The notes under the pieces are model-generated. The model did no database searches, had not been told where the DNA came from, and saw only the letters and a program-made list of their open reading frames with translations. The translations under genes and the position numbers were made by a program. A DNA stretch of 32,000 nucleotides from Candidatus Peribacter riflensis (GTDB lineage Bacteria > Patescibacteriota > Gracilibacteria > Peribacterales > Peribacteraceae). This document shows, in pieces, positions 14,256 through 32,000 of the stretch (position 1 is its first letter; each line of letters starts with the position of its first letter). The stretch is taken from assembly GCA_001430755.1 (NCBI GenBank), contig CP013062.1, forward strand, positions 60,001 through 92,000. Reading direction: 5' to 3'.

Positions 14256-14259
14256 GCAC

Positions 14260-15279: not shown

Positions 15280-15284
15280 GATTG

Positions 15285-15376
15285 CGTGGAAGGACAACCT
15301 GCGGTTTTCCTTCCGCGGACCATCCTTGCCCTTCAATGGTTGCGCTCCACCCCGCAACAAGTGCGGGGTTCGCGCA
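15285..15376 (+). repeat. two-hairpin structured element, copy 1 (divergent; terminator-like, 5 nt after the pilT stop)
   Basis: Hairpin 1: cgtggaagg-acaacc-tgc-ggtttt-ccttccgcg (15285-15317). Linker gaccatccttgcccttcaatggt. Nested hairpin: tgcgc-tcca-ccccgca-acaag-tgcgggg-ttc-gcgca (15341-15376). Same architecture and apical sequence as copies 2 and 3. Confidence 0.6.
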
Positions 15377-15427
15377 GTTGTTTCATTTCAGGCACGATAC
15401 ACGTTTTGTTCTGTCCACTTCTTTGTT

Positions 15428-15485
15428 GTCATCCTGAGCGGCATCTCCTTGCCATCCCGGCGTCACCCATTGGTCATCCCGAGCG
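15428..15485 (+). repeat. two degenerate direct copies of gtcatccYgagcg
   Basis: gtcatcctgagcg at 15428-15440 and gtcatcccgagcg at 15473-15485, in the pilT / 167-aa-gene intergenic region. Confidence 0.4.
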
Positions 15486-15556
15486 CAGTCGAGGGGTGGT
15501 GAATAGGGCGCAAATCGCACTCCGTCGCACAATCATGTCCTCGTGCATTGTTTGTT

Positions 15557-18848: not shown

Positions 18849-19817
18849 TTACTTTCCAAGAACGTAAGAGAAAATTAATGGAGCAACAATTGTTGCATCG
18901 GAATTGATCACAAAACTTGGAGTGTTCTTGGTGACTTTGTGCCAAGTGATCTTCTCTTTCGGAGTACAGCCAGAATAGGAACCGTAAGATGTAGTAGAGT
19001 CAGTAATCTGAGCATAATATGCCCAATGGGGACATTCCTTGCCCAAATCTAGAAGAATACAAGGCACACAACACAGGGCAAAATCTCCGGCAGTACCACC
19101 ACCGATTTGGAAAAAACCAACAGATGATTTTTTGCTTATTTCCTGATACCACTGCATCAAGTGTGCGAACTGTTCTGTGCCGTGTCTGATTGCAGCATGG
19201 CTTCGGATAGTTCCATCCATTACACGAGCAGCAAAAATGTTGCCCAAAGTTGAATCTTCCCAACCAGGGGAGTAGATCGGAATTTTCTTTTCCCATGCCG
19301 CAGCCATCCAAGAATGCGCAAAAGGTACCTGATTAATGTTATTTAGAAATCCCTCATCAAACAGCCGGAAGAGATACTCGTACGGGAAGTGGTGTTCTTC
19401 TTTTTTTGCAGCTTCTGCCCAGTATTCAATAAGTTTGTTTTCTACTTTTCGCATGACATTTTCTGGAATACATACATCAGTGACGCGATTCATGCCACGG
19501 TCGCGCAAGGCCTCCTCATCATCGGGCGTGAGATTGTCATAATCTGGAACCATTTCATACTCGTTATGAGCGATAAGGTTGAAGATGTCCTCTTCCAGAT
19601 TTGCAGCTGAGCAGGAAATAGCATGAATCTTGTCTTCCCGGATCATTTCTGCAAGTGAAATGCCGATTTCGGCCGTACTCATTGCTCCTGCCATAGCAAG
19701 GAACATTTTCCCTCCTTTCTTTTCATGGTCTACCCATGCCCGCGCAGCCCGCAGCGTTGTAAACGCGTTGAAGTGCTTGAAGTTTTCTTCCATAAATGAG
19801 GAGATTGGCTTCGGCAT
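18849..19817 (-). CDS. deoxyhypusine synthase family protein (homospermidine-synthase-like)
   Basis: 322 aa. RDRGMNRVTDVCIPENVMRKVENKLIEYW matches the DHS INRIGN..VPNENY region. FFQIGGGTAGDF matches the GGG loop. The C-terminal YSGCTPKEKITWHKV keeps the catalytic-Lys context (SWGK in eukaryotic DHS). Confidence 0.85.
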   Translation of the reverse strand: MPKPISSFMEENFKHFNAFTTLRAARAWVDHEKKGGKMFLAMAGAMSTAEIGISLAEMIREDKIHAISCSAANLEEDIFNLIAHNEYEMVPDYDNLTPDDEEALRDRGMNRVTDVCIPENVMRKVENKLIEYWAEAAKKEEHHFPYEYLFRLFDEGFLNNINQVPFAHSWMAAAWEKKIPIYSPGWEDSTLGNIFAARVMDGTIRSHAAIRHGTEQFAHLMQWYQEISKKSSVGFFQIGGGTAGDFALCCVPCILLDLGKECPHWAYYAQITDSTTSYGSYSGCTPKEKITWHKVTKNTPSFVINSDATIVAPLIFSYVLGK

Positions 19818-20881: not shown

Positions 20882-22330
20882 TTGTTTGTGAAACTTATAC
20901 AAACAACAGCTATCTGGTTTCTTGATAAAGGCAAGAGTTATTTGGTGCTAATTCTCTGTGGGCTCATTGCTGGAGCAGCAACGATTTCTCTATTTGGATA
21001 TACAAGAGATCTGCTGCTTACGCGCCTAGAGGACAAACTTATTGCGATCAGTTCGACTGCTTCACTTTTATTTGATGAGAAAGAAATCGAGCAGTTGCAT
21101 GAATTGGGTGGAGAGAGTGTCAATACTGATTTGTATCGGAAGACAGTATTAACATTGCGGAAAATTAAACGAAGAAATTCGGACATCAGATATGTCTACA
21201 TTTTTCACAGGACAGATGATCCGAGCCTACTCAAATTTGTGGCTGATGCAGATATGATCGCTCTGAAGACAGAATTGAATTTCACCGGTGAATCACAAGA
21301 TGAGAGTGATTTTCCCGGTACCGATTACGATGTGACCGAATCTCCAGGATTGCTTAGTGGTAATGCGTTCATCGAACCTACGATTGATGATCTTTATCAG
21401 GATGACTGGGGTTACGTGTTTTCAAGTTATGCACCTATCCGAGATAACCAAGGGGTGCCTTCCGATTCAATTATTGGTATCGATGTTGATGTAACACAAT
21501 ATCTCAATAATGTCTTTGCCACGCTCATACCTTTTACTGCGTTTATTGTGGCGTTATTCATTCTACTTGGTCTTCTAACTTTCTTCCTCCTTAGGATATG
21601 GGGATCGCGTGTGGACCTCCTCAAAGACCTCGACCGCCAAAAAGACGAACTCATCAGTATCGTCAGTCACCAACTGGCAACACCGGTGACCTCGGTGAAG
21701 TGGTACCTCGAGATGCTGCTGGATGGAGATTCCGGTGAACTGAACGAGGAACAGAAGAAACAGCTCATGACCATGCAGGGGGTGACAGAGGACCTTGTGG
21801 ACCTGGTGGGTATGATTCTGGATGTTTCGCGCATTCAGCTGGGCCGCATGAAGGTGGATCGCGGGCCGTTGGATCTGGGCACCTTCTTTACCGAAGTGCT
21901 GGCCGTGATCGAGCCCAAGGCGACCATGAAGAAGCAGCAATTCATCAAGAATATCCCGGGCAAGCTGCCCGTGGCGTCGCTGGATAAGCGTCTGATGCGC
22001 ATGACGCTCGAGAACCTGCTCAGTAATGCCGTCAAATACACGCCGGAGGGCGGAAAGGTGGAGCTGAATGTCACGCTCACAGATCACACGCTCCGCTACG
22101 AGGTGAAGGATACGGGTTGCGGCATCCCCAAGGAGGATCAAGAGAAGATCTTCGGCAAGCTCTTCAGGGCCACCAACGTGCGCAATACGGAGGGCAATGG
22201 TCTCGGCCTCTTCGCCGCCAAGGGCGCCGCCGAGGCGCAGGGTGGCAAAGTGTGGTTCGAGAGCGAATCGGGTAAAGGCACCACGTTCACCGTGGAAGTG
22301 CCGCTTGAGGAGGTGAAGGAGCAGGAGTAA
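20882..22330 (+). CDS. sensor histidine kinase with a periplasmic domain homologous to the TrmB-fusion sensor domains
   Basis: Two TM segments flank a domain containing FDEKEIEQLH, IRYVYIF, FVADAD, DDWGY, APIRDNQG and GIDVDV. H-box ISIVSHQLATPVTSV. HATPase motifs NLLSNAVKYTP and GNGLGLFAAKGAAEAQGGKVWFESESGKGTTFTVEVP. Start is TTG 20882 or GTG 20888. TGgTATAAT at 20873-20881 ends immediately upstream of TTG 20882, so a leaderless GTG-20888 start is possible. Confidence 0.9.
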   Translation: MFVKLIQTTAIWFLDKGKSYLVLILCGLIAGAATISLFGYTRDLLLTRLEDKLIAISSTASLLFDEKEIEQLHELGGESVNTDLYRKTVLTLRKIKRRNSDIRYVYIFHRTDDPSLLKFVADADMIALKTELNFTGESQDESDFPGTDYDVTESPGLLSGNAFIEPTIDDLYQDDWGYVFSSYAPIRDNQGVPSDSIIGIDVDVTQYLNNVFATLIPFTAFIVALFILLGLLTFFLLRIWGSRVDLLKDLDRQKDELISIVSHQLATPVTSVKWYLEMLLDGDSGELNEEQKKQLMTMQGVTEDLVDLVGMILDVSRIQLGRMKVDRGPLDLGTFFTEVLAVIEPKATMKKQQFIKNIPGKLPVASLDKRLMRMTLENLLSNAVKYTPEGGKVELNVTLTDHTLRYEVKDTGCGIPKEDQEKIFGKLFRATNVRNTEGNGLGLFAAKGAAEAQGGKVWFESESGKGTTFTVEVPLEEVKEQE

Positions 22331-22412
22331 ATCAAGCGTGGCATGCTCCCGATCATTATTAATCTTCACGTGAATGGTTTCCATTTTTCTTGTCGTGGTA
22401 TCAGTTGATGCA

Positions 22413-22530
22413 ATGAAATTATTTGCGGCGAAGCGTTGGGTGGCTCTGACGGGCCCCAACGCTGGAGCCGCACCGCTCAAGGGAAAAGAGAGCTCATGAG
22501 AGAAAAACCGCAGGTTTGTCTCTCATGACT
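22413..22530 (-). repeat. two-hairpin structured element, copy 2 (begins 1 nt after the ABC ATPase stop codon; terminator-like)
   Basis: The minus strand reads tcatgagaga-c-aaacc-tgc-ggttt-t-tctctcatga, gctctcttttcccttgagcggt, gcggc-tcc-agcgttggg-gcccgtcagagcca-cccaacgct-tc-gccgc, aaataattt. In my hand alignment 90 of 104 columns are identical to copy 3. Confidence 0.7.
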
Positions 22531-23536
22531 ATGCCCGTGACTCCATCGCAAACGCCTTCTCGATCACCTCCGTCAGGTCCACTTCTTCCATACGCAGTTC
22601 CTCGATGGGGAAGCTTCTGAGCATCCACTGGGTGGCGGCAGAGAGCTCCTCACGCGGCACGGCGATGCGGTAGGTGCGGGGGTCCACCTGTTCCAGGTGC
22701 TTGTTCTTCACCATCTCTGCAATCTTTTCGGTCTGGCCCTTTTCGAGCTGATCTTTGTGGAAGCGGATGATGCCGCAGCGTTCCGGCTCCAGACGATTGA
22801 CGAGCGATTCGAAGGAACCGTCGAAGACCTTCTTGCCCCTGTTGAGGATGATCACGTTCTCGCACAGGTTCGCGATGTCGTGCACGTAGTGGGAGGTCAA
22901 GAGCACCGTCATCTTCTCTTTCGCCTGGTACGTGCCGAGGAACTCCCACAGGTGCACCTGTGAGATCACGTCTAAGCCGATGGTGGGCTCATCCAGAAAG
23001 AGCACTTTGGGCTTGTGCAGGAGCGAAGCAATGAGCTCACATTTCATGCGCTCGCCCAGCGAGAGCTGACGCACGGGGGTACCGAGCACGTGTTCGACCC
23101 TGAGGAGCTTTGTGAGCGTATCCAGCGTCTCATTCCATTGATTGCGCGGAATCTCGTACAGATCGCGGTGGAGCACGAAGGTATCGGTGGGCGGCAGATC
23201 CCAGATGAGCTGGCTCTTCTGACCCATCACAAAGCCGATCTGCTTCTTGAAGGCGCGCTTGCGCTCAAAAGGCGTGAAGCCCAGCACCTTGCAGGAGCCT
23301 GCGGTGGGGCTGAGGATGCCCGAGAGCATCTTGAGAGTGGTCGTCTTGCCGGCACCGTTGGGTCCCAGAAATCCCACAAAGCTTCCTTCCGGAATAGCAA
23401 AGCTGATGCCGTCTACGGCATGCGCATCACTCCACTCACGCCAGAGCACGCTCTTGATCGTCGGGAGGAGGCCCGGTTTCTTTTCGTAGTGCCGGAACGT
23501 GCGCTTGAGATTCTTGACGGTGATCGCATCGGCCAT
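22529..23536 (-). CDS. ABC transporter ATP-binding protein (ABC-2 type, uncharacterised-substrate subfamily)
   Basis: Walker A GPNGAGKTT, signature LSLGERMK, Walker B VLFLDEPTIGLD, H-loop TSHY. ATG 23536 (MADAITVKNLKRTF) preferred over the track start 23617. Confidence 0.92.
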   Translation of the reverse strand: MADAITVKNLKRTFRHYEKKPGLLPTIKSVLWREWSDAHAVDGISFAIPEGSFVGFLGPNGAGKTTTLKMLSGILSPTAGSCKVLGFTPFERKRAFKKQIGFVMGQKSQLIWDLPPTDTFVLHRDLYEIPRNQWNETLDTLTKLLRVEHVLGTPVRQLSLGERMKCELIASLLHKPKVLFLDEPTIGLDVISQVHLWEFLGTYQAKEKMTVLLTSHYVHDIANLCENVIILNRGKKVFDGSFESLVNRLEPERCGIIRFHKDQLEKGQTEKIAEMVKNKHLEQVDPRTYRIAVPREELSAATQWMLRSFPIEELRMEEVDLTEVIEKAFAMESRA

Positions 23537-23549
23537 AGGGCGGGGGACT

Positions 23550-24305
23550 TTAGGAAGAGGCGGAACCGTAGGAACGAAGAAGGACTTTGAGGAGGAGGAG
23601 GGCGAGGGCCCACACACAGGCGGAGATCAACAGAAGGACCAAAATCGACAGTCTGCCTGTGATCACTTCAAGGGCGAGAGAATACTGCAAAACACCGAAA
23701 GAAGCAAGCCATAACATAAAACTGCGACTTCGTCCAATAGGGATAGAACGGGCGTTTTCCATGTATTCCCACAGACCTTCATAGGGATCCCACCTGCCCC
23801 ACCGGATCGAGGGGATGCAGAAGAGGAGGACGAGGGCCATCTCGATGGTGCTGGCAACGAACGCGGTCAAAAAAGCCATGAACCAGAGTGAAACAGGGAA
23901 GGCCCAGAAGATGATGCCGCTCCCCACGACAACGTGCGGCCAGTACCACACGATGCCCAGCTCTTCCGTCACGAGGCGGAGCAGGAACGGAGGGGGCTGC
24001 AGGAGCCAGTGATCCAGATTCCCACGCCAGACAGCCTTGTTGAGCGAGATGATCACGCCAACAATGACTGATTCTGCGATGCCGGTGGCGACGAGTGCCA
24101 TTCCAAAATAACCAATGACCTCGTTGGCCGCGTACCCGAAGAAGTTCCCGCCGCTGACCGTGAAGGTGACGTAGAGGAAGACCGCCTGAATGCCGAGGGT
24201 GCACCAGATGGTCACGATCCAAACCAGCACATCGGCGCGATAGCGACTCCAGCGCAGGAAGTGGAGGTTGATGGCCCGTTGGTAAATGGAGAGGAGGTAC
24301 CGCAT
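23550..24305 (-). CDS. ABC-2 family transporter permease
   Basis: 252 aa from ATG 24305 (MRYLLSIYQRAINLHFLRWSRYRADVLVW), 6 hydrophobic segments. The stop lies 13 nt before the ATPase start. The track start 24506 overlaps the upstream permease. Confidence 0.8.
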   Translation of the reverse strand: MRYLLSIYQRAINLHFLRWSRYRADVLVWIVTIWCTLGIQAVFLYVTFTVSGGNFFGYAANEVIGYFGMALVATGIAESVIVGVIISLNKAVWRGNLDHWLLQPPPFLLRLVTEELGIVWYWPHVVVGSGIIFWAFPVSLWFMAFLTAFVASTIEMALVLLFCIPSIRWGRWDPYEGLWEYMENARSIPIGRSRSFMLWLASFGVLQYSLALEVITGRLSILVLLLISACVWALALLLLKVLLRSYGSASS

Positions 24306-24310
24306 ACTGA

Positions 24311-25108
24311 TCAGCCACCTACGGCGTCGTAGCGCCGTATGCCGGCGCGCCAGAGGAGGATGACTAAGCCAAAGAGAAGGATGCTCCACAGCGCCTGTCC
24401 GAGGAGCAGAGCAGAAAGCGCGGCAGACTGTGGATGCAGGATGGCATCCACCGGGCCGGAGATGCCAAACCTGAGCGGGAGCACGCGACTGATATGCTCG
24501 AGCCAAGCAGGGAGCAGATCCAAGGGGAGGAGCCGGCCCCCGAAGAACTCCAGGATGAGCATGACCAGAGCAAAAATGCTATCCGTTTTGATCACCCAGA
24601 AGGCACACATGCCGACTGCAGTACTGAGGAGGCTGAAGAGTACCAGTGAGAGGGGCATTACGATGATGGCATTGATGAGTGACGCGAATGAGAGCTCCGC
24701 AAAGACAGAGGGGAAGATCCACAAACACAGAAGCAGTGCGGTGAGCGCAGGGATCAGCAGGAGGACGATGCGCGAAAGAATGATACTCACTGTCGTTTCG
24801 AGAAACGTAAGTGGACGGATGAGCCACTGGTTCAACGTGCCCATGTGCACCATCGAGCTCATCTCGTAATGAAACTGGATATCGGTGAAGATCCCGATGA
24901 TGAACACAAGCAGGTAGTAGGCGATCATGTCATTCTCGGCCCATCCGCCGAGGGAATCTGCCTGTGCGTGATCAAAGATCGCTTTCCATGCGAGCAGAGG
25001 GATCGTGAGCGGCAGAATGCGTTCCAGAAAGAGCTGAAGCCAGAACTCCCGGTGCAGGAGTTTCTGCTGCAGGTGCACCGAAATCGTGGATGCAAGCACT
25101 CGAATCAC
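24311..25108 (-). CDS. ABC-2 family transporter permease (second subunit)
   Basis: 265 aa, GTG start, multi-TM. Paralogous layout to the downstream permease, 5-nt gap to the next gene. Confidence 0.8.
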   Translation of the reverse strand: MIRVLASTISVHLQQKLLHREFWLQLFLERILPLTIPLLAWKAIFDHAQADSLGGWAENDMIAYYLLVFIIGIFTDIQFHYEMSSMVHMGTLNQWLIRPLTFLETTVSIILSRIVLLLIPALTALLLCLWIFPSVFAELSFASLINAIIVMPLSLVLFSLLSTAVGMCAFWVIKTDSIFALVMLILEFFGGRLLPLDLLPAWLEHISRVLPLRFGISGPVDAILHPQSAALSALLLGQALWSILLFGLVILLWRAGIRRYDAVGG

Positions 25109-25289
25109 TGGATGACTATACCTTGTTTTTTCGCATGGTGAAGCTGTAGCGTGGCGGGAGTGGAAGGATAAATGCGTTTTTCACCAAGTATAGGAGGATT
25201 AAGATTCGCAGAAGCGCCATATTTTTTTATTGTGCTGAATACTCAAGGATGTAACGTTTTGCCTCGTTTCACTCTTTCCCATCATTGCA

Positions 25290-25721
25290 ATGCCACAGGT
25301 CTTTGTTCCAACCATGAAGGAATACAATTCCAGCGGTGCCTGGGGGATGCTGACTTCCATCGATGTTCACGGGTGCAATCCCGCAACCGTCCGCAGCGCA
25401 GAGGCCATCAAACTGTTTACGCAGCAGATGTGCGAGCTGATCGATATGAAGAGGTACGGCGAGACGCAGGTCGTCAACTTTGGCGATGATCCGCGGGTAC
25501 ACGGGTATTCCATGGTGCAGTTGATCGAAACATCGCTGGTGTCGGGCCACTTTGCCGAAGAGACGAATTCCGTCTTCCTCGATGTGTTCAGCTGCAAGTA
25601 CTACGATGCTGCCAAGGCCGCCGCGTTCGCTGCAAAGTTTTTCGGCGGTAAGGACTACAGCGCGACCACCCTGCTCCGCGGGAAATTCGAAAAGAGCTCC
25701 CTTCCCGATAAAAAGCAGTAG
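25290..25721 (+). CDS. S-adenosylmethionine-decarboxylase-fold (SpeH-like, pyruvoyl) protein, divergent paralogue 2
   Basis: AWGMLTSIDVHGCNP (N-terminal strand), HGYSMVQLIETSLVSGHFAEE (processing-site region) and VFLDVFSCKYYD (conserved Cys region). 143 aa, typical of the family. Confidence 0.72.
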   Translation: MPQVFVPTMKEYNSSGAWGMLTSIDVHGCNPATVRSAEAIKLFTQQMCELIDMKRYGETQVVNFGDDPRVHGYSMVQLIETSLVSGHFAEETNSVFLDVFSCKYYDAAKAAAFAAKFFGGKDYSATTLLRGKFEKSSLPDKKQ

Positions 25722-25750
25722 GCGCAGAAAATCCTCAGCATGGTGAAGGC

Positions 25751-26320
25751 CTAGTGGGCCTCTTCCATCAGGCGTGCAACGCTTTCTTCGAGCATCGTGA
25801 GGAGCAGACGGTAGGCATCGGCATGCCGGGTTTGCCGCGCCTCCTCGCGCGCAAAGAGCGGCAGGTAGAGCGTGGCGGTTTCGCTGAGCAGGGCTTCGCG
25901 GCGCGCGGGGGCGAGGTACTGCGACGTTTCGAGATTGTGCAGCCGGTCGGCCATCTTGATGAGGAGCACGTACGGCAGACGCCCGTTCACCTCGACGATC
26001 CGGGCGAGGTAGGACTCTTCGTGGGCGCGCTCACTGAGCCTCTTGGGCCGTTCTGCGCGCGTGAGGGCCTCGACGGCATCGGCGACATCCGCGCCGAAGG
26101 CGGCCCGGATCCCGGCGATCGTGGCCTGGCCATCCTCCGCCGCGTCATGGAGCAGCCCCGCCACGTATGCCTCGTGCGGCAGGTCGGTGCCGGCCGTGAG
26201 CAGAAACTGCAGCACGGCGAGCGGGTGCGAGACGAACACACGCCCATCCGCCCTCTTTTGCCCGTCGTGTGCGCGGCGGGCGAAGGCGATGGCATCCCGG
26301 AAGGCTAAGAAGCGTCCCAT
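25751..26320 (-). CDS. HD-domain (p)ppGpp-hydrolase-like protein (SpoT/RelA hydrolase domain only)
   Basis: FARRAHDGQKRADGRVFVSHPLAV and LLHDAAEDG (HDxxED) motifs. ATG 26320 (MGRFLAFRDAIAFA) preferred over the track start 26419. Confidence 0.8.
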   Translation of the reverse strand: MGRFLAFRDAIAFARRAHDGQKRADGRVFVSHPLAVLQFLLTAGTDLPHEAYVAGLLHDAAEDGQATIAGIRAAFGADVADAVEALTRAERPKRLSERAHEESYLARIVEVNGRLPYVLLIKMADRLHNLETSQYLAPARREALLSETATLYLPLFAREEARQTRHADAYRLLLTMLEESVARLMEEAH

Positions 26321-26554
26321 AGTGAGGGGTGCGGCGGGCGGGAGCGACGGAGCACCTGCGTCGATGAGGCAGGTGAGGACCGCGCAGGACCGGGGCCGCT
26401 GGTGGCAGGAGGTATCCAAGAGACAGTATGGAACGCGAGAGGGGCGTGCATACTAGCGGCTGAAAAAATGGAATCGAGCAATTTTGGTTTACGGGCTGTA
26501 CGTAATTGTATACGTGACCAAAAGGGCGTTCTGGTGGGTGGTGGAACGCAAGGG

Positions 26555-26676
26555 TTCATGAGAGACAAACCTACGGTTTTTCTCTCATGAGCTCTCTTTT
26601 CCCTTTAGCGGTGTCGCTCAGCTACGGGTCCCGTCAGAGCCACCCGCAGCTTCGCGACGATTATTGAAATAATTTG
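26555..26676 (+). repeat. two-hairpin structured element, copy 3 (orphan, inverted relative to copy 2)
   Basis: tcatgagaga-c-aaacc-tac-ggttt-t-tctctcatga (26556-26590), gctctcttttccctttagcggt, gtcgc-tc-agctacggg-tcccgtcagagcca-cccgcagct-tc-gcgac (26613-26658), then gattattg aaataattt. Confidence 0.7.
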
Positions 26677-26721
26677 TAAGAAGCAGAAATTTCCCCAATG
26701 CGATCTTTTTCCGTATCAATG

Positions 26722-27390
26722 TCACTTTAGCAGCGCGAATGACTTCGTGAACGCGTCGAAGTAGCGCAGGTTGCGATCGAAGCGGTCTGCGATCGCGCTA
26801 AATTCCAGCACGATGATGCGGTTGCCCGAGGGGATGCGGATCTGGCGGACTTTGCACGTCTTGCTCTGGCAGCGGTGTGTGAACGTACTCACGAGCGTTT
26901 CTTTCTTTTGCCAGGTGGAACCCTCGGATGACAGGGCTTCGGGCATCAGGAGAAAACGCCCTCCCTCGAATTCTTCCGCGTAGAATGGGGCGCGCGAGAA
27001 GTTCTCGAAATCCTGCCGCATGCGGTCCATTGTCGCGGCCTTGCCGAGAGGCGCGATGCCCACCGAGAGCGTCGTCCCCAGATAGGCGGGGCTTTCAAAA
27101 CGCGTCCAGTCGTATTGCTGCCGCGTAGTGCCTGTTTCTTTGTCTTCGTACGTGAGGCTCCAGTCTTCGGGATACTCTACGCTCCACCCTCCGAGCACAT
27201 CGCGGTACGCGCGTAGTGGAGTAGAAGGCAGGGTCGGAATCTTGATCCGCATGTCCTTGCGCGCTTTCGCCTGCGTGGCGCGGTAAGTTGGCCGCGACGA
27301 TGAGGCCTGCGGAAGGAACCGGGCGGATGCCATAACGGGGCAACCGAGGAGGAAGATGACGGAGAGGGCGAGAAAGGAGGAGGGACGCAT
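26722..27390 (-). CDS. putative lipoprotein, function unknown
   Basis: The signal peptide MRPSSFLALSVIFLLGCP carries a lipobox-like LLGC. The 222-aa mixed alpha/beta-looking mature part has no recognised motif. Confidence 0.65.
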   Translation of the reverse strand: MRPSSFLALSVIFLLGCPVMASARFLPQASSSRPTYRATQAKARKDMRIKIPTLPSTPLRAYRDVLGGWSVEYPEDWSLTYEDKETGTTRQQYDWTRFESPAYLGTTLSVGIAPLGKAATMDRMRQDFENFSRAPFYAEEFEGGRFLLMPEALSSEGSTWQKKETLVSTFTHRCQSKTCKVRQIRIPSGNRIIVLEFSAIADRFDRNLRYFDAFTKSFALLK

Positions 27391-27408
27391 GGGGGAGGGG
27401 GAATGGAG

Positions 27409-27957
27409 CTACGGGGCTGCCTTTCCGAAGGAGAAGGAGTTTCGTAATTCGGGGTACTTTTCCCAGGCTTCAAACTTCAGTGTGCATCCCGCACGGATAA
27501 CGGCGTTACGGATAGGGAGGCAATCCGCAGCGCTACGATTTCTGTGCGCCCGCAGCAAATCACACCAATCCAGGCGTAGAGGATCAGATTGCGGTTTACT
27601 GCACTCGTCCCATTCAAAGAATCCAGCATCCATGTGATCTTCGTATTCCTGCGCAGTGACGTCATTGATGCAGCTCAGGCCATACTCGCTCGGCATCAGC
27701 AGTGCGCAGGCGGAGGGATCATGAGAGAGTTCTGCATACTCTCGTATGCATCTATTCCTCAATTCTCGAGTCGTTGGCCTGAACCAAGGATCCAGTGTGA
27801 CAAAAAGATAACAATCTTTGGCAGGCCTGTTTTCATTCACCAGTTTCATTGGAAGCTCCTCCGGCGAGCGGGCATGTTCGTAATAGAATGTGTGTAATCC
27901 GACGAAACCAACTGCAATGAGGACGACAGTGATGATGAGGAGCCTGTGTCGATGCAT
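27409..27957 (-). CDS. membrane-anchored Cys-rich protein, paralogue P1 (DPSAC..LLMPS.YG.SC family)
   Basis: TM anchor LLIITVVLIAVGFVGL, 8 Cys, shared motif HDPSACALLMPSEYGLSCIND. ATG 27957 (GTG 27969 in the track). Confidence 0.7.
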   Translation of the reverse strand: MHRHRLLIITVVLIAVGFVGLHTFYYEHARSPEELPMKLVNENRPAKDCYLFVTLDPWFRPTTRELRNRCIREYAELSHDPSACALLMPSEYGLSCINDVTAQEYEDHMDAGFFEWDECSKPQSDPLRLDWCDLLRAHRNRSAADCLPIRNAVIRAGCTLKFEAWEKYPELRNSFSFGKAAP

Positions 27958-28062
27958 AAAATATGACACGAAAAGACGGATTAGTAATTGGTACTTGTGC
28001 TTTCTCCTTCCTCCAAAGGAATTTGATCATAGATATGCGTATGATGTGGGATGGTGCTATGA

Positions 28063-28695
28063 CTACTCAATTCGGTATGCGTAGAGGATATCGTCTATCC
28101 ATGATCCATAAAAAAACATGGTTGAAGAATAGAGTTTTTTCTGCCCATTAGAAGCAATATTTCCAAGCCCAATTTCATACCAGTCCCTTCTCCAACGCAT
28201 TCCACTGCTTGGCCATACCTTTTTCCATCCCGTGGAAGACAATTCTCTGTCGTAGAATTGTGCAATTCCCTCAAAAGGTGTTTCATCCTCAAAAGTAATA
28301 GAAAGCATCGGTTCATTGTCAAAACCATCTCCGCCGTTGTACAACTGTTTTTTTTCGATGGAAATGGCGTAGTGTGGCATCAAATTTTCAGCGATTTTTT
28401 CTCGCTGCAATTGCAAATACTGCTGTTTGGCTTTGTGGCTGAATACGGTTAGACCGATGAGTAGCGTGAAGAGAGCGAATGACAGAACAAACCTAAATGG
28501 CGGCAGACGTCCACGCCATCCGAGCAAAGCACCAACTATTACTGATAACAACGGTATCCAGAACAGAACCCACAACAGTATTGGATGCTCGAATGGGAGA
28601 GTAAGTGCAAGAAGCGCTAGGCCGAACCCAAGGAAACCACCAAACACGGCGCTTCTCCTGCGATTTCCTACAGTTCTTGTTACGTTTGGAATCAT
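28063..28695 (-). CDS. 3-TM membrane protein with C-terminal soluble domain
   Basis: 210 aa. Positively charged N-terminus (GNRRRS), three hydrophobic segments, then a ~115-aa domain. Its ATG (28695-28693) overlaps the upstream gene stop (ATGA), suggesting translational coupling. Confidence 0.7.
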   Translation of the reverse strand: MIPNVTRTVGNRRRSAVFGGFLGFGLALLALTLPFEHPILLWVLFWIPLLSVIVGALLGWRGRLPPFRFVLSFALFTLLIGLTVFSHKAKQQYLQLQREKIAENLMPHYAISIEKKQLYNGGDGFDNEPMLSITFEDETPFEGIAQFYDRELSSTGWKKVWPSSGMRWRRDWYEIGLGNIASNGQKKLYSSTMFFYGSWIDDILYAYRIE

Positions 28696-29345
28696 GACCC
28701 GTAAGAAATGAGACTTGAAATATAACGAAGAACGAAGGGTGCCGCATAATTATCGATGGTACTGTGCGTTTGCGAATCCTGTATGCCATCGCAATCAATC
28801 TGTATCATCGGGATTGATCCATTATTATTCATTGCCATGCCATTAAGTGTACCATCTGAGGCGATGCCAACATTTGATTGGTAAATATTTAGCATAGTAC
28901 ATGTGTTTACCGGAATAAATGGTTCCGGGAAACCACAAGCAAGGTTTCCTTGGGTAACTGCATCAACATATGCCGATCCAGTTATCGTGATATTGCCGTG
29001 ATTTTTCGCTATCCATTGACTGAATTTATGCACCATTCCTCCGCCCCAGCTGTAACCAACAAGAATGATATTTGTGAGTTGCGGGTTATTCTGAAGTCTG
29101 GATTCTACGAAGGTTTGCGCATTTTGCAGGGCTTCATCGGCAGTGGGTGACATAATCTCAAACCAAATCAGATCCCAGCACTCGTTCGCTGGCCTCCCGT
29201 TCTTTACGAGATACTCGGCCAGATCCCACGGTGCCCAATTGATGTAGGGCCGGTGCCAGCCAAAGATTGTCATCCAACCATAGACGATCAGAGCTAAGAC
29301 AGTCAGGGCGAGAGTGCCAATGAGGTATGGGGCACGGAATCTCAT
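28692..29345 (-). CDS. chimeric protein: 69-aa anchor module of the Cys-rich family fused to a 5'-truncated lipase-like alpha/beta-hydrolase segment (GYSWG)
   Basis: Residues 1-69 are identical to P3. From residue 70: DEALQNAQTFVESRLQNNPQLTNIILVGYSWGGGMVHKF (GxSxG nucleophile elbow at Ser99), later IDCDG and SQTHSTID. Only ~28 aa precede the nucleophile, so the oxyanion-hole strands seen in the large lipase (VWVVVHG..VATVDW) are missing. Confidence 0.65.
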   Translation of the reverse strand: MRFRAPYLIGTLALTVLALIVYGWMTIFGWHRPYINWAPWDLAEYLVKNGRPANECWDLIWFEIMSPTADEALQNAQTFVESRLQNNPQLTNIILVGYSWGGGMVHKFSQWIAKNHGNITITGSAYVDAVTQGNLACGFPEPFIPVNTCTMLNIYQSNVGIASDGTLNGMAMNNNGSIPMIQIDCDGIQDSQTHSTIDNYAAPFVLRYISSLISYGS

Positions 29346-29373
29346 ACTAGTTTCCTAGGATAGGGGAACCATT
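29138..29373 (-). repeat. 236-bp direct repeat, copy X (234/236 identical to 30601-30836)
   Basis: Hand alignment gives a constant offset of 1463 nt. There are two mismatches, both synonymous on the minus strand (TCA/TCG Ser, CTG/CTA Leu). Confidence 0.95.
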
Positions 29374-30010
29374 ATTTTCTTACGAGTGCACGGACTCCAA
29401 CCAGACAAGCTGACCGGATATTTGCGTTTTCGATCTTCGAGCACGCTTCCATGTTGATTTTTTTCTTTGCCACTTCGTGGTAGCACTGATCGATGAAATC
29501 TCGTGTGGCTACGAGAGAGGAGCAATCCTTCTTTTCGTCATAGAAGGCGATGCGTGCAACTGCACAGCAGGTGTTATTTTGTGTGGCAGCGTCACCATGC
29601 ACACACTGTGCCAATGGAGCAATGATTCCATTGCCTCGGACTTCAGGCGGCTCTTTGAAATCAAACAAGCACGGCTGCTTGTCTGTTGCTGCCCCCAAGC
29701 ATGACCATCCGTAACTGCTCGGCATCAGAAGCTCGCAGGCAGAGGGGTCGTGCGTGAGCTTGGCGTAGATGTAGATGCAGAGCCTTCTTTTTTCGGCCAA
29801 GGAAGGCCCCATAGTCGGCATGGTCTGTTGAAGTTTTCTACAGCGCGTGGGATCACCCTTCTCTGAAGCAATGGCCTGCGCAAGCTCTGAGGGCGAGATA
29901 TCGACGGGATAGCCAATCATCTGGAGCACTAAACCGCGTCCAATGAGAAGGACTATGCCGATGACGGGCAAGGCGGCAACTATGCCGAGAACAAGCAGGA
30001 GCTTCCGCAT
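29372..30010 (-). CDS. membrane-anchored Cys-rich protein, paralogue P2
   Basis: TM anchor LLLVLGIVAALPVIGIVLLIG, 12 Cys. PSELAQAIASEKGDPTRC and RRLCIYIYAKLTHDPSACELLMPSSYGWSCLGA parallel P3. Confidence 0.75.
   Translation of the reverse strand: MRKLLLVLGIVAALPVIGIVLLIGRGLVLQMIGYPVDISPSELAQAIASEKGDPTRCRKLQQTMPTMGPSLAEKRRLCIYIYAKLTHDPSACELLMPSSYGWSCLGAATDKQPCLFDFKEPPEVRGNGIIAPLAQCVHGDAATQNNTCCAVARIAFYDEKKDCSSLVATRDFIDQCYHEVAKKKINMEACSKIENANIRSACLVGVRALVRK
29689..29734 (-). repeat. 46-nt perfect repeat inside P2 (identical to 30493-30538 in P3)
   Basis: ctgcccccaagcatgaccatccgtaactgctcggcatcagaagctc in both genes. It encodes ELLMPSSYGWSCLGA. Confidence 0.9.
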
Positions 30011-30133
30011 GTGACGTGCTTAGGGGAGGTACGATCCGGGGCCAGAGGATGGCGGCTGGATCTCTCTGTACACGATGAATATTGTTACGGGGTGGCCTGT
30101 GAAACGACGCAGAGAGAAAAGCACGAGTGGTTA

Positions 30134-30808
30134 CTATCGAGCGAAAGACCAATTCTGAGAGTATTGCTGCCACGCATTAATTTCCATTTCACAAAGCTTT
30201 CGTTTCTTTTCATTTGGCATCTTGGCACAGAGAGAAGGATCTTTCATTTTAAAGGCATATCGTCTCTCGCAGATTTCCCGCAAGCCAGGCGGATCGGTGG
30301 AGATCTTGTCGCACTCATACACGTTCGGCAACGAAGCAGAACGCTCTTCATGGCACCAATCGCGGAGGATTCGTTGATCATAGGCATTACAATCATCGAT
30401 GCCCAAGTTTGGCGAGAAGACGTTATATGCTCCGCAGTTTATTTTCTCTTTGGTGCTTCCACAGCCAACGCCTTCCCAGAGTTTGCCCTTCACTGCCCCC
30501 AAGCATGACCATCCGTAACTGCTCGGCATCAGAAGCTCACATGCGGAGGGATCTTTGGCGGTTTTGGCGTACGAATAAATGCACGATGCTCTTTGTTCTG
30601 CGGCAGTGGGCGACATAATCTCAAACCAAATCAGATCCCAGCACTCGTTCGCTGGCCTCCCGTTCTTTACGAGATACTCGGCCAGATCCCACGGTGCCCA
30701 ATTGATGTAGGGCCGGTGCCAGCCAAAGATTGTCATCCAACCATAGACGATCAGAGCTAAGACAGTTAGGGCGAGAGTGCCAATGAGGTATGGGGCACGG
30801 AATCTCAT
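30134..30808 (-). CDS. membrane-anchored Cys-rich protein, paralogue P3
   Basis: TM anchor YLIGTLALTVLALIVYGW, 12 Cys. ASCIYSYAKTAKDPSACELLMPSSYGWSCLGA. ATG 30808 lies 1 nt after the stop of the upstream lipase gene. Confidence 0.75.
   Translation of the reverse strand: MRFRAPYLIGTLALTVLALIVYGWMTIFGWHRPYINWAPWDLAEYLVKNGRPANECWDLIWFEIMSPTAAEQRASCIYSYAKTAKDPSACELLMPSSYGWSCLGAVKGKLWEGVGCGSTKEKINCGAYNVFSPNLGIDDCNAYDQRILRDWCHEERSASLPNVYECDKISTDPPGLREICERRYAFKMKDPSLCAKMPNEKKRKLCEMEINAWQQYSQNWSFAR
30493..30538 (-). repeat. 46-nt perfect repeat inside P3 (identical to 29689-29734)
   Basis: See the partner entry at 29689-29734. Confidence 0.9.
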
Positions 30809-30836
30809 ACTAGTTTCCTAGGATAGGGGAACCATT
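30601..30836 (-). repeat. 236-bp direct repeat, copy Y
   Basis: Covers the last 8 sense codons plus stop of the large lipase gene (NGSPILGN*), 1 nt, and codons 1-69 (plus 1 nt) of P3. Confidence 0.95.
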
Positions 30837-32000
30837 TTCATCTTGCGAATAGAACTGGTAGGCGTTTGCTATCCATGCCTGCTTTCCGTTATCCGCTCCA
30901 CTCGTGAATGTCGTCAACGACGGGTTGGCATAGAAGCAGCCTTCCCAATTATTCTCCCGCGCGCTGAATTCCGCAGCATTGGAACGGAGATTGGGCAGGG
31001 AAAATCGGTTTGCTATTACATCGCTAGGATTCTCCTTCTGTCTCCTCAAGAGTCCTGAGAAGAGAGATACGGCAAATCCGTGTTCATTGTAGGCATCGCG
31101 GAGTTCATCGGCAGTTTCAATTCCAAGCGCTGTAAAATAGTGTTGTGAAGCGACCATCTGTGCGGCAGCGGCGTCCCACGATCCCTGTTCGTAATTTTCG
31201 GGAGCGACGATGCTGAAAGCGTACTGCGCCGTGAGTGCGCGATTCCTGTCTCCGAATGTGCTTGAATGGAACGCGTACGAGTTCGCCGCGATGTTGGCGA
31301 ATGAGAAGTTGGGATCCTCGATTCCTTTGTACTTTCCTCCACCCAGCAGCTTGGAATCCGCCGCCGGATCCAGCGCGATCAAGGTCTGTACTCCGCCCGG
31401 TGTCCGCTTGCCAATTTCGTATGCCACGTATGCACCCCAGCTGTGGCCCACGAGGCAGATATTCTGCGTGCTGAAGCCAGCCGCCTGCAATTGATTGGTA
31501 ACCCATGTGCCCACGCTCTCAATCCAGCGTGAACCTTCCAGGCCGATGGGCGTGGCATTATCAGCTGCCCCGTCTCGCCAGTCCACGGTGGCGACTTGTG
31601 CGCCCAATGCATGAAGATTCTTAGTCAATTCCGCGATCTGACTACTCTCTTCACTATTCCCTCTCCCATGCACCACCACCCAGACGGGCTTGGAGGGATC
31701 GAGTTCTGACACTTTGTTGTAGTCAGTGATTCGTTGTCCGTTTTCAAACTCCGCCACACTCATGCTCACCGGCATTGCCACATCCCTCCCTTCGATACTG
31801 ACCATCCCCTCAATCTTCTGCGACCGATAGGGTTTGATTTCATACTGCACCGAAGTTGCAGAAGGCGCACAGTCAAATGTTGAATCGTCCCTCACGGTGA
31901 TCGTATATGTCCCCGGGAGCAGTGCGAGACTGACAGATTCCGCCGAGGCCACGGACTTGCCGGATGTGTAGGGTCCGACGGTGTGCCCGTCCACAGTAGT
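30810..32000 (-). CDS. lipase-family alpha/beta hydrolase domain protein (5' end beyond the right edge of the window)
   Basis: KPVWVVVHGRGNS, VATVDW, ICLVGHSWGAYVAYEIG (GHSxG), TLIALDPA and AFHSSTFG follow the pancreatic-lipase-family order GHSLGAH...LDPA...H. The track start 31994 is a GTG, and the two codons upstream of it (to position 32000) are sense codons, so the gene probably continues upstream. Confidence 0.8.
   Translation of the reverse strand, partial: TTVDGHTVGPYTSGKSVASAESVSLALLPGTYTITVRDDSTFDCAPSATSVQYEIKPYRSQKIEGMVSIEGRDVAMPVSMSVAEFENGQRITDYNKVSELDPSKPVWVVVHGRGNSEESSQIAELTKNLHALGAQVATVDWRDGAADNATPIGLEGSRWIESVGTWVTNQLQAAGFSTQNICLVGHSWGAYVAYEIGKRTPGGVQTLIALDPAADSKLLGGGKYKGIEDPNFSFANIAANSYAFHSSTFGDRNRALTAQYAFSIVAPENYEQGSWDAAAAQMVASQHYFTALGIETADELRDAYNEHGFAVSLFSGLLRRQKENPSDVIANRFSLPNLRSNAAEFSARENNWEGCFYANPSLTTFTSGADNGKQAWIANAYQFYSQDENGSPILGN

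Follow-up and report, generated by a model that had tools for sequence, protein, structure and literature searches.

The locus examined here raises the question of whether two neighbouring hairpins in the genome of Candidatus Peribacter riflensis, which lie antisense to both annotated neighbour genes, belong to a nucleic acid whose fold is under selection, and what that fold would do. The window, meaning the whole 32-kb stretch of Candidatus Peribacter riflensis DNA that was analysed, was scanned with a covariance model of the element, which placed the complete focal unit (4-nt lead, first hairpin H1, linker, second hairpin H2, and tail) at 26553-26675 on the plus strand with 103 bits and E = 3.9e-27. 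Both hairpins are present in the sequence, as an earlier note on this DNA had claimed. H1 (26556-26590; TCATGAGAGA...TCTCTCATGA) is a hairpin of 15-16 bp with a purine-rich 5′ arm at 26557-26571, a UAC loop at 26572-26574, a pyrimidine-rich 3′ arm at 26575-26589, and a C.U mismatch at 26566/26580. The pyrimidine linker GCTCTCTTTTCCCTTT (26591-26606) contains a mirror repeat of the H1 3′ arm, CTCTCTTTT at 26592-26600, which is a candidate third strand and is followed by a nearly invariant UUCCCU. H2 (26613-26658) is nested: its outer stem (26613-26617 / 26654-26658) encloses an inner stem (26621-26628 / 26643-26650) with an apical loop at 26629-26642, and its internal loop reads UCA on the 5′ side (UCCA in the family consensus) and UUC on the 3′ side. 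The tail GATTATTGAAATAATTT (26659-26675), inside which lies the palindrome ATTATTGAAATAAT, is a weak, U-poor form of the family's U-rich tail with 4 T, and a consensus terminator scan found no site there. Relative to shuffled sequences, the stability of the fold corresponds to z = -6.8 for the focal copy and z = -5.2 for the copy at 22408-22531.

The claim that the window holds three copies was reproduced by the covariance-model search, which recovered exactly three (113, 103, and 64 bits). The second copy lies on the minus strand at 22408-22531 (113 bits) and begins 1 nt past the TAG stop (22529-22531) of an ABC-transporter ATPase gene (22529-23617, minus strand; Pfam ABC_tran), and the third, divergent copy (15281-15393, plus strand; 64 bits, E = 2e-16) stands 5 nt behind the TGA stop of a T2SSE/PilT-like ATPase gene (14113-15279, plus strand; Pfam T2SSE). 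The H1 of the third copy is GCGTGGAAGGACAACC/GGTTTTCCTTCCGCG, and its linker has changed in step to CCATCCTTGCCC. Recounting the focal copy against the reverse complement of 22424-22528 identified them as the same element, with the 90 identical columns of 104 reported previously, and returned the same four double substitutions that preserve pairing (26614/26657, 26615/26656, 26623/26648, and 26625/26646) and the same single A.C at 26624/26647, where the second copy has U-A. Shuffled sequences lead one to expect 0.01 occurrences of the H1 palindrome pattern; the window has two. No tRNA or tmRNA was found in the window. A composite transposon with the two inverted copies as its ends around the HD-ABC block was unsupported, the operon being kept without the upstream copy in five relatives.

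An exact 21-mer of the element is common to 32 loci in 15 Peribacteria/Peregrinibacteria assemblies, a looser pattern matched metagenome sequences too, the listed matches being a lower bound, and cmsearch yielded ~140 sense-strand matches, 130 of them distinct, among the matches listed; the sources of these ~130 copies are 15 Peribacteria/Peregrinibacteria assemblies and 80 metagenome contigs. The 3 copies in the 32-kb window, and 4 further copies found in one genome within 56 kb of flanks, correspond to a density of roughly one per 10-14 kb, and the copy number is probably around a hundred per genome. The unit is bipartite and 105-125 nt long (typically ~115), with a conserved 15-bp H1, a pyrimidine linker, H2, and a U-rich tail. 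Across 90 distinct sequences, 92.9% of cells are paired compared with 77.0% in shuffles, and 341 cells are compensatory compared with 102 in shuffles, a level that 0 of 500 shuffles reached; slid-alignment controls were 40-49% paired. Changes on both sides were seen in 18 of 23 pairs across the family, including 11 of the 15 pairs in H1, and H1 is perfectly paired in only 7 of 95 haplotypes, its near-constant single true mismatch having the look of a selected feature. The internal loop of H2 is nearly invariant (TCCA in 119/130 copies, TTC in 123/130), and the first 6 bp of the inner stem combine 602 Watson-Crick pairs out of 636 with 4-6 pair types per position. We rejected H2 as a free-standing generic type of terminator, since 88 of the 92 occurrences of H2 with the invariant UCCA/UUC loop are accompanied by H1 and the linker, and the remaining four represent variant or truncated elements.

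Four contigs, three of them from named assemblies and one from a metagenome, carry the element behind the stop codon of a gene whose product ends in ...MPWHKWK, with differing H1/H2 classes, and copies behind apparently the same gene, as recognised from shared C-terminal coding sequence, have different stems across genomes with pairing kept. Other copies are identical in H1 and linker and have wholly different H2 hairpins. Extra hairpins were noted as insertions at loop positions (the H1 loop, the linker end, and the internal and apical loops of H2), similar to the variable regions of structured RNAs, and truncated and H1-less copies are present. Rfam 15 gave no match at gathering thresholds over the whole window, and a search with E up to 10 over 22300-26900 returned noise, its best hit over the element being MIR848 at 19.5 bits against a gathering threshold of 90; no Rfam family match explains the element. 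The 21-mer has no exact match in viral contigs, the element goes unmentioned in the paper on Peribacteria genomes (PMC4736985), and literature searches with keywords and consensus sequence strings returned nothing relevant and no description of it. The element is a previously undescribed, lineage-specific, multi-copy cis-element of Peribacteria, members of the candidate phyla radiation.

In most copies the H1 end adjoins a same-strand stop codon (0-6 nt, mode 2) or the 3′ end of a tRNA (3-9 nt). Where a neighbour lies within 12 nt of the H1 end, 49 of 59 copies follow the stop of a CDS or the 3′ end of a tRNA on the same strand, and the other 10 are turned towards the start of a feature on the opposite strand; where both neighbours lie within 300 nt, the upstream neighbour is on the same strand in 49 of 63 cases and on the opposite strand in 14 (~22% antisense). 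Stop-codon usage before the element is at background, so the stop codon is not a sequence target, and the flank at the H1 end is conserved for only 4 A/T-rich nt. After H2, T makes up 52-77% at each of positions +3..+9 in the family logo, and the interval +2..+9 contains 4.7 T on average and at least 5 T in 80 of 129 copies. The arrangement of H1 at same-strand stops and tRNA ends and of a U-rich tail past H2 fits the earlier suggestion of a 3′-end module. Some copies are followed at a distance of 0-30 nt by a tRNA or CDS on the same strand, so not all of them can be efficient terminators, and at L011 and L019 the element stands behind a canonical-looking terminator. Both orientations were seen, including tail-to-tail dimers with a common 17-nt tail between tRNA genes. 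The ABC ATPase gene is followed by the element in two species, and across relatives its 3′ end is full, H1-less (the H1-less copy at L159 9264-9356), or empty; the tRNA-Cys site in related genomes holds either the full element or one whose 5′ part is replaced by 1.9 kb; and the focal site is empty of the element in five relatives. No sign of target-site duplication emerged from the longest direct k-mer common to both flanks (4.02 versus 4.09 ± 0.08 in shuffled pairings), inverted repeats in the flanks were likewise at the level of shuffled pairings (4.04 versus 4.04), and no terminal inverted repeats were found beyond H1.

The linker had been described as almost invariant, which is true between the near-identical window copies only; family-wide, it covaries with H1. 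In register 0 the linker equals the reversed H1 3′ arm in 86.4% of cells compared with 29-45% in shifted registers, the mutual information between linker and H1 runs along the diagonal in a constant register, and the H1 5′ arm covaries with the 3′ arm, a three-way covariation (both H1 arms and linker) that is unusual. Canonical C.G-C and U.A-U triples occupy 72.5% of cells in register 0 and 24-39% when shifted, the H1 helix itself (P-W) reaches 85.8% of cells, and concerted changes between GC.C and AT.T occur at five positions. One position, however, carries A.C with C in 43 haplotypes and A-U with A in 24, both off the canonical triplex code, and the linker agrees more closely with the 3′ arm than with the purine-arm complement (73.1%), which is not what a simple sense-strand triplex predicts. 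An alternative in which the linker forms Watson-Crick pairs with the purine arm, as in a switch of the terminator/antiterminator type, was rejected on the grounds of having no constant register, at most 68% pairing, and weak covariation. Judged from sequence, a mirror linker that covaries with H1 in a constant register is the design of an intramolecular triple helix, and part of the element may fold as one.

The role that we propose is that of a lineage-specific RNA 3′-end module acting as a terminator or exonuclease barrier, a reading to which we give about even chances; capping of transcript ends appears to be the most likely function. The element would be transcribed as the 3′ end of the preceding gene or tRNA, with the sense RNA as the presumed active molecule, and H2 with its U-rich tail would serve as an intrinsic terminator, as a barrier to 3′-to-5′ exonucleases, or as both. 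H1 and the mirror-repeat linker would form an additional, sequence-conserved structure that marks or stabilises the transcript end, most likely a putative pyrimidine-purine-pyrimidine triple helix in which both faces of the purine arm would be read, a site bound by protein, or a combination of the two. As in intrinsic terminators, tandem-hairpin ones included, a G+C-rich hairpin leads into a T-rich stretch, read on the upstream gene's strand, the unit sits right behind stops and tRNAs, and the stem sequence of H2 is free as long as pairing is kept. Ordinary terminators, however, share no sequence, whereas in the element the hairpin upstream, the linker, and the internal loop are conserved across species; its U tract is interrupted and begins 2-3 nt past the stem; and some copies stand directly before a co-directional tRNA or gene.

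The closest parallels for H1 and the linker are the triple-helix RNAs at 3′ ends, namely the ENE of KSHV PAN RNA, MALAT1, and MEN-beta, which lie near RNA 3′ ends, as the element would. The strands would follow in the same order, with a purine strand and a loop first, then a pyrimidine strand, a turn, and the mirrored pyrimidine strand, and in parallel register C would stand for G and U for A. Single-strand purine-loop-pyrimidine-loop-pyrimidine triplexes were reportedly made in vitro by Sklenar and Feigon in 1990. MALAT1 couples its triple helix with a tRNA-like processing site, and the element adjoins tRNA genes. The differences are nonetheless considerable: in the ENE, two U-rich strands belonging to an internal loop grip a tail rich in A, whereas the third strand of the element would be a C/U linker; a triplex in the element would need several C+.G-C triples; another hairpin follows, unlike in the ENE; ENEs are eukaryotic or viral and the element is bacterial; and the recurrent A.C + C and A-U + A depart from the code of canonical triplexes. 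A bolder version of our reading, which we put forward tentatively, is that Peribacteria might use a natural intramolecular RNA triple helix (purine arm, pyrimidine arm, and mirror linker, with H2 and its UCCA/UUC loop as backing) as a genome-wide 3′-end device on mRNAs and tRNA precursors, with about a hundred per genome probably read by a lineage-specific factor, as a bacterial counterpart of the ENE/MALAT1 principle.

Several other explanations have to be weighed against a 3′-end module. A functionless chance similarity or the passive decay of a recent in-window duplication could be entertained while only two near-identical copies (88% identity) were visible, two sequences being unable to prove covariation; it is now refuted and has virtually no probability left, given ~130 distinct copies among the matches listed from many genomes and habitats, covariation far above shuffled and slid controls, and a conserved position relative to genes. 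The case made previously for selection on a folded nucleic acid is thereby strengthened, as these copies keep both hairpins by compensatory change and, behind apparently the same gene, carry different yet paired stems across genomes. Rather unlikely, on our assessment, is a DNA repeat of the REP/BIME kind, kept or spread as folded single-stranded DNA that is recognised by a dedicated protein such as a RAYT-like Y1 transposase, with the gene-end position a tolerated insertion and any RNA effects secondary. Like the REPs and BIMEs of Enterobacteria and Pseudomonas (REPINs, RAYT), of which dozens to hundreds occur per genome and which reportedly stabilise the mRNA upstream of them and influence termination, the element is multi-copy, extragenic, mostly right behind genes, hairpin-forming, lineage-restricted, and long-lived, and it occurs in both orientations and in inverted pairs. 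Its density, its varying presence at the same locus (the focal site, the ABC 3′ end, and the tRNA-Cys site), the tail-to-tail dimers between tRNA genes, and the truncated and H1-less copies all suit such a repeat, as does the agreement of the antisense G.T (rather than A.C) and of the linker/3′-arm rule (G with G, A with A or T) with the purine-motif triplex code, purine-motif triplexes forming with DNA rather than RNA. Against it stand the lack of target-site duplications and of terminal inverted repeats beyond H1, the fact that no transposase or RAYT gene came to notice, the orientation bias of 49:14 to the upstream gene with a one-sided T-rich tail, the divergence of same-gene copies through compensatory changes, the absence of the exact 21-mer from viral contigs, and the pairing of identical H1 and linker with wholly different H2, which fits sequence selection better than recent copying. 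The element is, moreover, asymmetric and ~115 nt long, whereas REPs are imperfect palindromes of 20-40 nt; it lacks their GTAG-type 5′ motif, with only 4 A/T-rich bases conserved in its 5′ flank, and it has the invariant internal loop, mirror-repeat linker, and orientation bias that REPs do not. Bacterial MITEs (Correia/NEMIS, ERIC, RUP, BOX), which are often co-transcribed with neighbour genes, are similarly short, multi-copy, structured, and intergenic, but in the element terminal inverted repeats and target-site duplications are absent, stems are compensated rather than decaying, and the placement behind stop codons is fixed, whichever of them is used. The functional form of the integron attC is the folded single strand antisense to the gene, and attC sites share with the element a location immediately 3′ of ORFs and a conserved structure with varying sequence and length; the element, however, is dispersed behind housekeeping genes and tRNAs rather than in cassette arrays, no R/L core sites or integrase came to notice, and its H1 and linker are conserved in sequence.

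The strand evidence is in conflict, because the antisense strand folds better: in 117 of 130 copies its RNA has the more stable fold, with a mean advantage of 5.1 kcal/mol, and on the sense strand A.C outnumbers G.U by 79 to 16 in H1 and by 25 to 3 in the inner stem of H2. It is therefore conceivable, if improbable, that the functional molecule is an RNA of the opposite strand (an independent small RNA or a cis-antisense RNA) and that the strand described here is its complement. On that strand G.U would replace almost every non-Watson-Crick combination in H1 and the inner stem of H2, the invariant internal loop would read GAA/UGGA, a purine-rich 3x4 loop that we take to resemble known RNA modules more than UCCA/UUC does, and the focal copy would be co-directional with both neighbour genes. 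Such an RNA would, however, have no conserved promoter- or terminator-like flank, only 4 A/T-rich bases and no U tract following H1′; at most copies it would either read straight into a convergent gene from that gene's 3′ side or lie antisense to a tRNA; and the orientation bias favours the other strand. The mismatch pattern also has another explanation in the one true mismatch that H1 almost always carries, for which reason the G.U versus A.C test, whose outcome was antisense, is not relied on; the signal from the antisense strand is weakened by that mismatch but still stands. Tetraloop orientation (UNCG, GNRA, CUYG) was uninformative as a strand test. Mini-ORFs in H1 (AUG/UGA in UCAUGA on either strand, with an SD-like AAGGAG on the antisense) were rejected as a general feature, as roughly one haplotype in four has a CGCG or CACG variant and thereby no start codon. 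More doubtful still is a signal in duplex DNA, in which H-DNA from the mirror repeat and a cruciform from the palindrome, or a triplex of the nascent-RNA linker on the just-transcribed 3′-arm duplex, would form a barrier to transcription or replication at gene ends. The location of the copies at gene ends and the better fit of the linker to the 3′ arm than to the purine-arm complement, as a triplex on a W:W′ duplex needs, agree with this proposal; yet the mirror arms of only ~9-10 nt are short for H-DNA, the H1 5′ arm covaries with the 3′ arm, and H2, the invariant internal loop, the compensatory evolution, and the inserted hairpins would be left unexplained.

For the focal copy itself, the 3′-end module has to be reconciled with the earlier statement that it is not behind a same-strand gene. 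No annotated gene precedes it on the plus strand, which agrees with that statement, but a candidate 25-codon ORF with a TTG start (MVYGLYVIVYVTKRAFWWVVERKGS; 26484-26561, plus strand) ends at the H1 base, with its TGA stop within TCATGA. Its first 22 codons are retained by 5 of the 6 relatives compared; L157 shows four synonymous changes. For a 40-aa query the protein database contained no homologue of the small peptide. Only if this ORF is real does the focal copy lie downstream of a gene on its own strand. Among copies without a called adjacent gene, 35% have an ORF of at least 25 codons ending at the H1 base, compared with 13% at control positions. Adjoining the H1 end is a conserved non-coding block upstream of the HD-ABC operon (26425-26550, minus strand), seen in a six-species alignment, which contains a hairpin CGTTC-CACCACCNCCCA-GAACG, then CCCTTTT, then GTAAACCAAAATTGCTCGATT..ATTTTTT..CGCTA(G/C)TATGC. 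A structured RNA gene in this block was rejected, with no covariation by RNAalifold in the six-species alignment and no Rfam match, and the view of the focal copy as an orphan, whether the 3′ end of a small RNA or a relic, could not be established. Because a short, partly conserved plus-strand ORF ends inside H1, the focal copy may be an ordinary one and not an orphan; either it ends a short plus-strand transcript, whose origin would be the candidate 25-codon ORF or divergent transcription around the HD-ABC promoter, or it was gained in this lineage and would have no role there.

The candidate phyla radiation consists of bacteria that cannot be cultured by themselves, and to our knowledge almost nothing is known about how their transcripts end, are processed, or are stabilised. 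If a density of one per 10-14 kb holds genome-wide, the element would make up ~1% of a 1.2-Mb genome and would stand behind perhaps one gene in ten and many tRNAs, and it could be used as a marker for Peribacteria contigs in metagenomes. We know of no earlier repeated triple-helical gene-end element in bacteria, so that this one would be the first if the triplex is true, and its ~hundred sequence variants per genome would then be a natural test set. Should the element instead be a REP-like DNA repeat, it would mean that even such minimal genomes carry and keep these elements. For the Peribacteria, a lineage of ultra-small groundwater bacteria, the element offers a concrete, testable handle on RNA 3′-end biology.

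Both hairpins that the earlier note described for the copy at 26553-26675 (the focal copy) are present on the plus strand: hairpin 1 (H1, 26556-26590) reads TCATGAGAGACAAACC-TAC-GGTTTTTCTCTCATGA and is followed by GCTCTCTTTTCCCTTTAGCGGT, and the nested hairpin 2 (H2) has the outer stem GTCGC/GCGAC and the inner stem GCTACGGG/CCCGCAGC. The second copy (22408-22531, minus strand) is the same element, 90 of 104 alignment columns being identical to the reverse complement of 22424-22528; the 14 differing columns include, as claimed, four double substitutions that preserve pairing, and one stem position is A.C in the focal copy versus U-A in the second. The H1 palindrome pattern occurs twice in the window against 0.01 expected, and folding compared with shuffled sequences gave z = −6.8 and −5.2 for these two near-identical copies, the opposite strands of which fold as well or better. 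The covariance-model check that had been proposed was run and detected a third, divergent copy at 15281-15393 (plus strand); a scan of the whole window with this model, filters off, returned no copy beyond the three.

One exact 21-mer taken from the linker (TCTCATGAGCTCTCTTTTCCC) was found in 32 stretches from 15 species-representative assemblies, with a maximum of eight matches per genome, and these assemblies are all named Peribacteria, Peribacteraceae or Peregrinibacteria except for one contig labelled candidate division WOR-1 (METM01000030.1). The latter equals a Peribacteria contig (MFXW01000055.1) over the 190 nt compared and was probably binned wrongly. A looser pattern, which leaves the H1 arms and linker unfixed, gave metagenome matches that, among those listed, came from groundwater, lakes, the sea and sludge, and no viral contig searched with the exact 21-mer contained it. 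Applied to the collected loci, the covariance model produced at least about 140 sense-strand matches, 130 of them distinct, among which were 98 distinct haplotypes of H1 plus linker and 106 distinct canonical H2. No family in Rfam 15 matches the element, and no description of it was found in the Peribacteria genome paper (PMC4736985) or in full-text searches, consensus strings included.

The whole unit spans about 105-125 nt. Four A/T-rich bases lead into H1, a hairpin of 15 bp whose loop has 3 nt (UAC or UGC), with a purine-rich 5' arm, a pyrimidine-rich 3' arm and a nearly invariant apex (AAACC/GGUUU); after a two-base turn comes the pyrimidine linker, which ends with a nearly invariant UUCCCU and is separated from H2 by five to eight variable bases. 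H2 consists of an outer stem of 5 bp, an internal loop (5' side UCCA in 119 of 130 copies, 3' side UUC in 123 of 130) and an inner stem-loop, which comes in several length classes from 17 to 31 nt, plus one case of 68 nt, and differs considerably in sequence. In the tail that follows, T makes up 52-77% at positions +3 to +9. Because H2 with the conserved internal loop almost never occurs without H1 and linker (they co-occur in 88 of 92 cases, the other four being variant or truncated units), the three parts form one unit. Additional hairpins are present in some copies, at the H1 loop, the linker end, the H2 internal loop or the H2 apex, and a linker-end insertion of 95 nt is conserved between two genomes.

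The proposal that selection acts on a fold, rather than the copies decaying passively, is borne out by paired changes across a large sample. In an alignment of 90 distinct metagenome copies, which was fitted to the model and is thereby biased toward structure, standard pairs occupy 92.9% of pair cells (shuffles, 77.0%), both partners vary in 18 of 23 pairs, and compensatory cells number 341 versus 102 in shuffles, a value reached in 0 of 500 shuffles. Pairing falls to 40-49% when the partner is slid by 1-3 columns. A base-anchored count over the unmodelled part of the inner stem nevertheless agrees: Watson-Crick pairs make up 602 of 636, and each position shows four to six types of pair. Apparently the same gene (ending ...MPWHKWK*) bears the element in four contigs (L004, L010, L013 and L075), and its copies fall into three H1 classes and no fewer than three H2 classes (the H2 of L004, L010 and L013). 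Where copies stand behind apparently the same gene in different genomes, their differences are paired changes, and together with those across the family these rule out passive decay.

The linker had been called almost invariant; across the family, however, it changes jointly with H1 and is not simply invariant. It repeats the 3' arm of H1 in mirror order, the centre of symmetry being the final base of H1. In register 0, linker and mirrored 3' arm have the same base in 86.4% of cells, versus 29-45% in shifted registers, and the covariation score is 0.119 versus about 0.015. These values are near those of the H1 helix over the same positions (85.8% paired, covariation score 0.149). When the linker is instead set antiparallel to the purine arm, no more than 68% of cells pair and covariation is slight. 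Mutual information between linker and H1 falls on the diagonal (0.65, 0.81, 0.70, 0.29 and 0.21 bits), and at five positions G-C with C alternates with A-U with U. The mirror covariation of linker and H1 is established.

The arrangement of purine arm, loop, pyrimidine arm, turn and mirror pyrimidine strand is a design for a single-strand triple helix, the same as that reportedly built into an oligonucleotide by Sklenar and Feigon in 1990. The code of ENE and MALAT1 is C+.G-C / U.A-U, and canonical triples account for 72.5% of cells in register 0 versus 24-39% elsewhere. Off-code combinations occur at H1 position 10 (A.C with C in 43 haplotypes, A-U with A in 24), the linker tracks the 3' arm more closely than the purine arm, and on the antisense strand the same triples read as G.G-C, A.A-U, U.A-U and G.G.U, a purine-motif code that is known for DNA rather than RNA; for these reasons, that H1 and linker might form a triple helix is offered only as a hypothesis.

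The evidence on which strand folds is in conflict. The orientation bias, the one-sided T-rich tail and the close placement behind the 3' ends of genes and tRNAs favor the sense strand, whereas in 117 of 130 copies the antisense RNA has the higher stability (by a mean of 5.1 kcal/mol, and still by 2.0 with G.U pairs disallowed) and the invariant internal loop is purine-rich there (GAA/UGGA). Also in favor of the antisense strand, on the sense strand A.C exceeds G.U by 79 to 16 in H1 and by 25 to 3 in the H2 inner stem, with the opposite trend in the H2 outer stem (A.C 4, G.U 12). Of 95 H1 haplotypes only 7 pair perfectly, and 53 have a single true mismatch, located at position 10 or near position 14; this mismatch looks like a retained feature, and the wobble comparison therefore carries less weight. 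Hairpin-loop motifs did not discriminate between the strands. We rank the sense-RNA reading first, with moderate confidence.

At the family level, the idea of a 3'-end module is supported by the positions of the copies, for which neighbors were called with ARAGORN and from crude, greedily selected ORFs of at least 90 codons. In about 30 copies the stop codon of a same-strand gene lies 0-6 nt (mode 2) from the H1 end, and in four of these the gene's own TGA is that within UCAUGA; in 17 copies the H1 end is 3-9 nt from the 3' end of a same-strand tRNA, and in 10 it is within 12 nt of an opposite-strand tRNA or CDS start. Usage of the adjoining stop codons (TAA 13, TGA 12, TAG 5) agrees with the background, so the stop codon is not a sequence target. 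Of the copies flanked on both sides by a neighbor within 300 nt, 27 are placed between convergent genes, 22 in sense between co-directional genes, eight antisense between co-directional genes (the class of the focal copy) and six in divergent regions; the tail side showed no neighbor preference. Where no adjacent gene was called (n = 84), an ORF of at least 25 codons ends at the H1 base in 35% of copies versus 13% of control positions, which indicates that the share behind a stop codon exceeds the crude calls.

Tail-to-tail pairs with a common 17-nt tail occupy the interval from tRNA-Arg to tRNA-Ala and one that separates two tRNA-Gly genes. Tail-to-tail dimers between two co-directional tRNA genes are located in L006 (7368-7579), L016 (158-390) and L105 (2144-2354); the two units have the 17-nt tail in common in L006 and L105 and are set apart by a 17-nt spacer in L016, and only 1-7 nt separate the H1 end of the second unit from the start of the following tRNA. 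L031 has one unit between tRNA-Arg and tRNA-Ala, and it fills that spacer exactly. Neither a target-site duplication nor an inverted repeat was found in the element's flanks. At L011 (3400-3420) and L019 (about 6570-6600) the element directly follows a canonical-looking terminator (G+C-rich hairpin plus TTTTT) and is thus not required there as sole terminator. At a tRNA-Cys site (L007 2169-4059 versus L022 4479-4642), one genome has the full element with a 95-nt structured linker insertion, and in a close relative 1.9 kb, including a 538-codon gene, replaces the stretch from the tRNA end to mid-H2, such that the breakpoint falls inside the element. A second repeat motif, CYGAGC-N3-GTCGARGG, usually part of a small hairpin (its loop or an arm), occurs in the window at 15479-15495 (plus strand) and recurs adjoining, or inserted within, copies of the main element; 17 exact matches were found in 16 loci (e.g., L001 6604-6620, L028 2337-2353, L032 7460-7476, L098 281-297 and L158 9283-9299), with about 0.04 expected by chance in the sequence searched.

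The focal copy is antisense to both annotated neighbors: upstream, the gene for a 222-aa protein that belongs to a paralogue array, and downstream, the HD-domain gene of an operon with the order HD/ABC-2/ABC-2/ABC-ATPase. In five relatives (HD proteins 56-67% identical) the operon is conserved and no element lies upstream of it. A non-coding block, about 200 nt long, shows almost base-for-base conservation in six Peribacteraceae species (the window and relatives L153-L157), and in the window it (26425-26550, minus strand sense) begins directly at the element's H1 end. It contains a CGTTC-CACCACCNCCCA-GAACG hairpin, CCCTTTT and then GTAAACCAAAATTGCTCGATT..ATTTTTT..CGCTA(G/C)TATGC, with an insertion of roughly 145 nt between its two halves in L156. 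The block holds promoter-like boxes for the HD-ABC operon and, since folding it as RNA on the window's plus strand only revealed no covariation, is probably a promoter or operator region.

Within this block lies a candidate hydrophobic ORF (26484-26561, plus strand; 25 codons, TTG start, MVYGLYVIVYVTKRAFWWVVERKGS*) whose stop is the TGA at the H1 base. Its first 22 codons are kept in five of the six species, with four synonymous differences in the most distant; the C-termini differ, and an insertion breaks it in one species. The peptide had no homologue in the protein database, and no annotation of the ORF was seen. Given this stop and the partial conservation, the focal copy, earlier called an orphan that may be the end of a small RNA, has perhaps an equal chance of being an ordinary copy behind a small unannotated gene; otherwise, it would be a lineage-specific gain at the outer edge of the promoter region, where it could stop divergent transcription in its sense. 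The second copy stands behind the ABC ATPase, where one relative has an H1-less copy and another has none. The two inverted window copies do not bound a mobile block.

The paralogue array itself comprises six tandem genes of about 185-225 codons (26722-30808, minus strand) with no Pfam match; its inter-gene repeats at 29133-29385 and 30596-30848 are 97% identical over 253 nt, and relative L154 has a single copy of the gene. An S-adenosylmethionine decarboxylase-like gene (25290-25721, plus strand) lies in opposite orientation between the HD and ABC-2 genes in P. riflensis, and none of the five relatives examined has it at that position. The gene for a deoxyhypusine synthase is located at 18849-19817.

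Among known systems, REP/BIME-type repeats and intrinsic terminators are closest to the element in behavior, and triple-helix RNA 3'-end elements are closest in the design of H1 and linker. The element departs from REPs in size and in lacking their GTAG; the TIR and TSD that define MITEs are likewise missing. The family as a whole resembles intrinsic terminators in its place behind same-strand genes and its T-rich tail, the focal copy only weakly. We file the element as a repeated structured gene-end element. The main rival reading, a REP-like DNA repeat, is considered unlikely. Three copies in this 32-kb window and a further four within 56 kb of flanking sequence from one genome suggest a copy number of order one hundred per ~1.2-Mb genome, as extrapolated from local density rather than counted. 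In the leading reading, held at about even odds, the element would act as a terminator or 3'-end stabilizer with a conserved recognition structure; a more novel and less likely one is that it may be a bacterial triple-helical 3'-end device.
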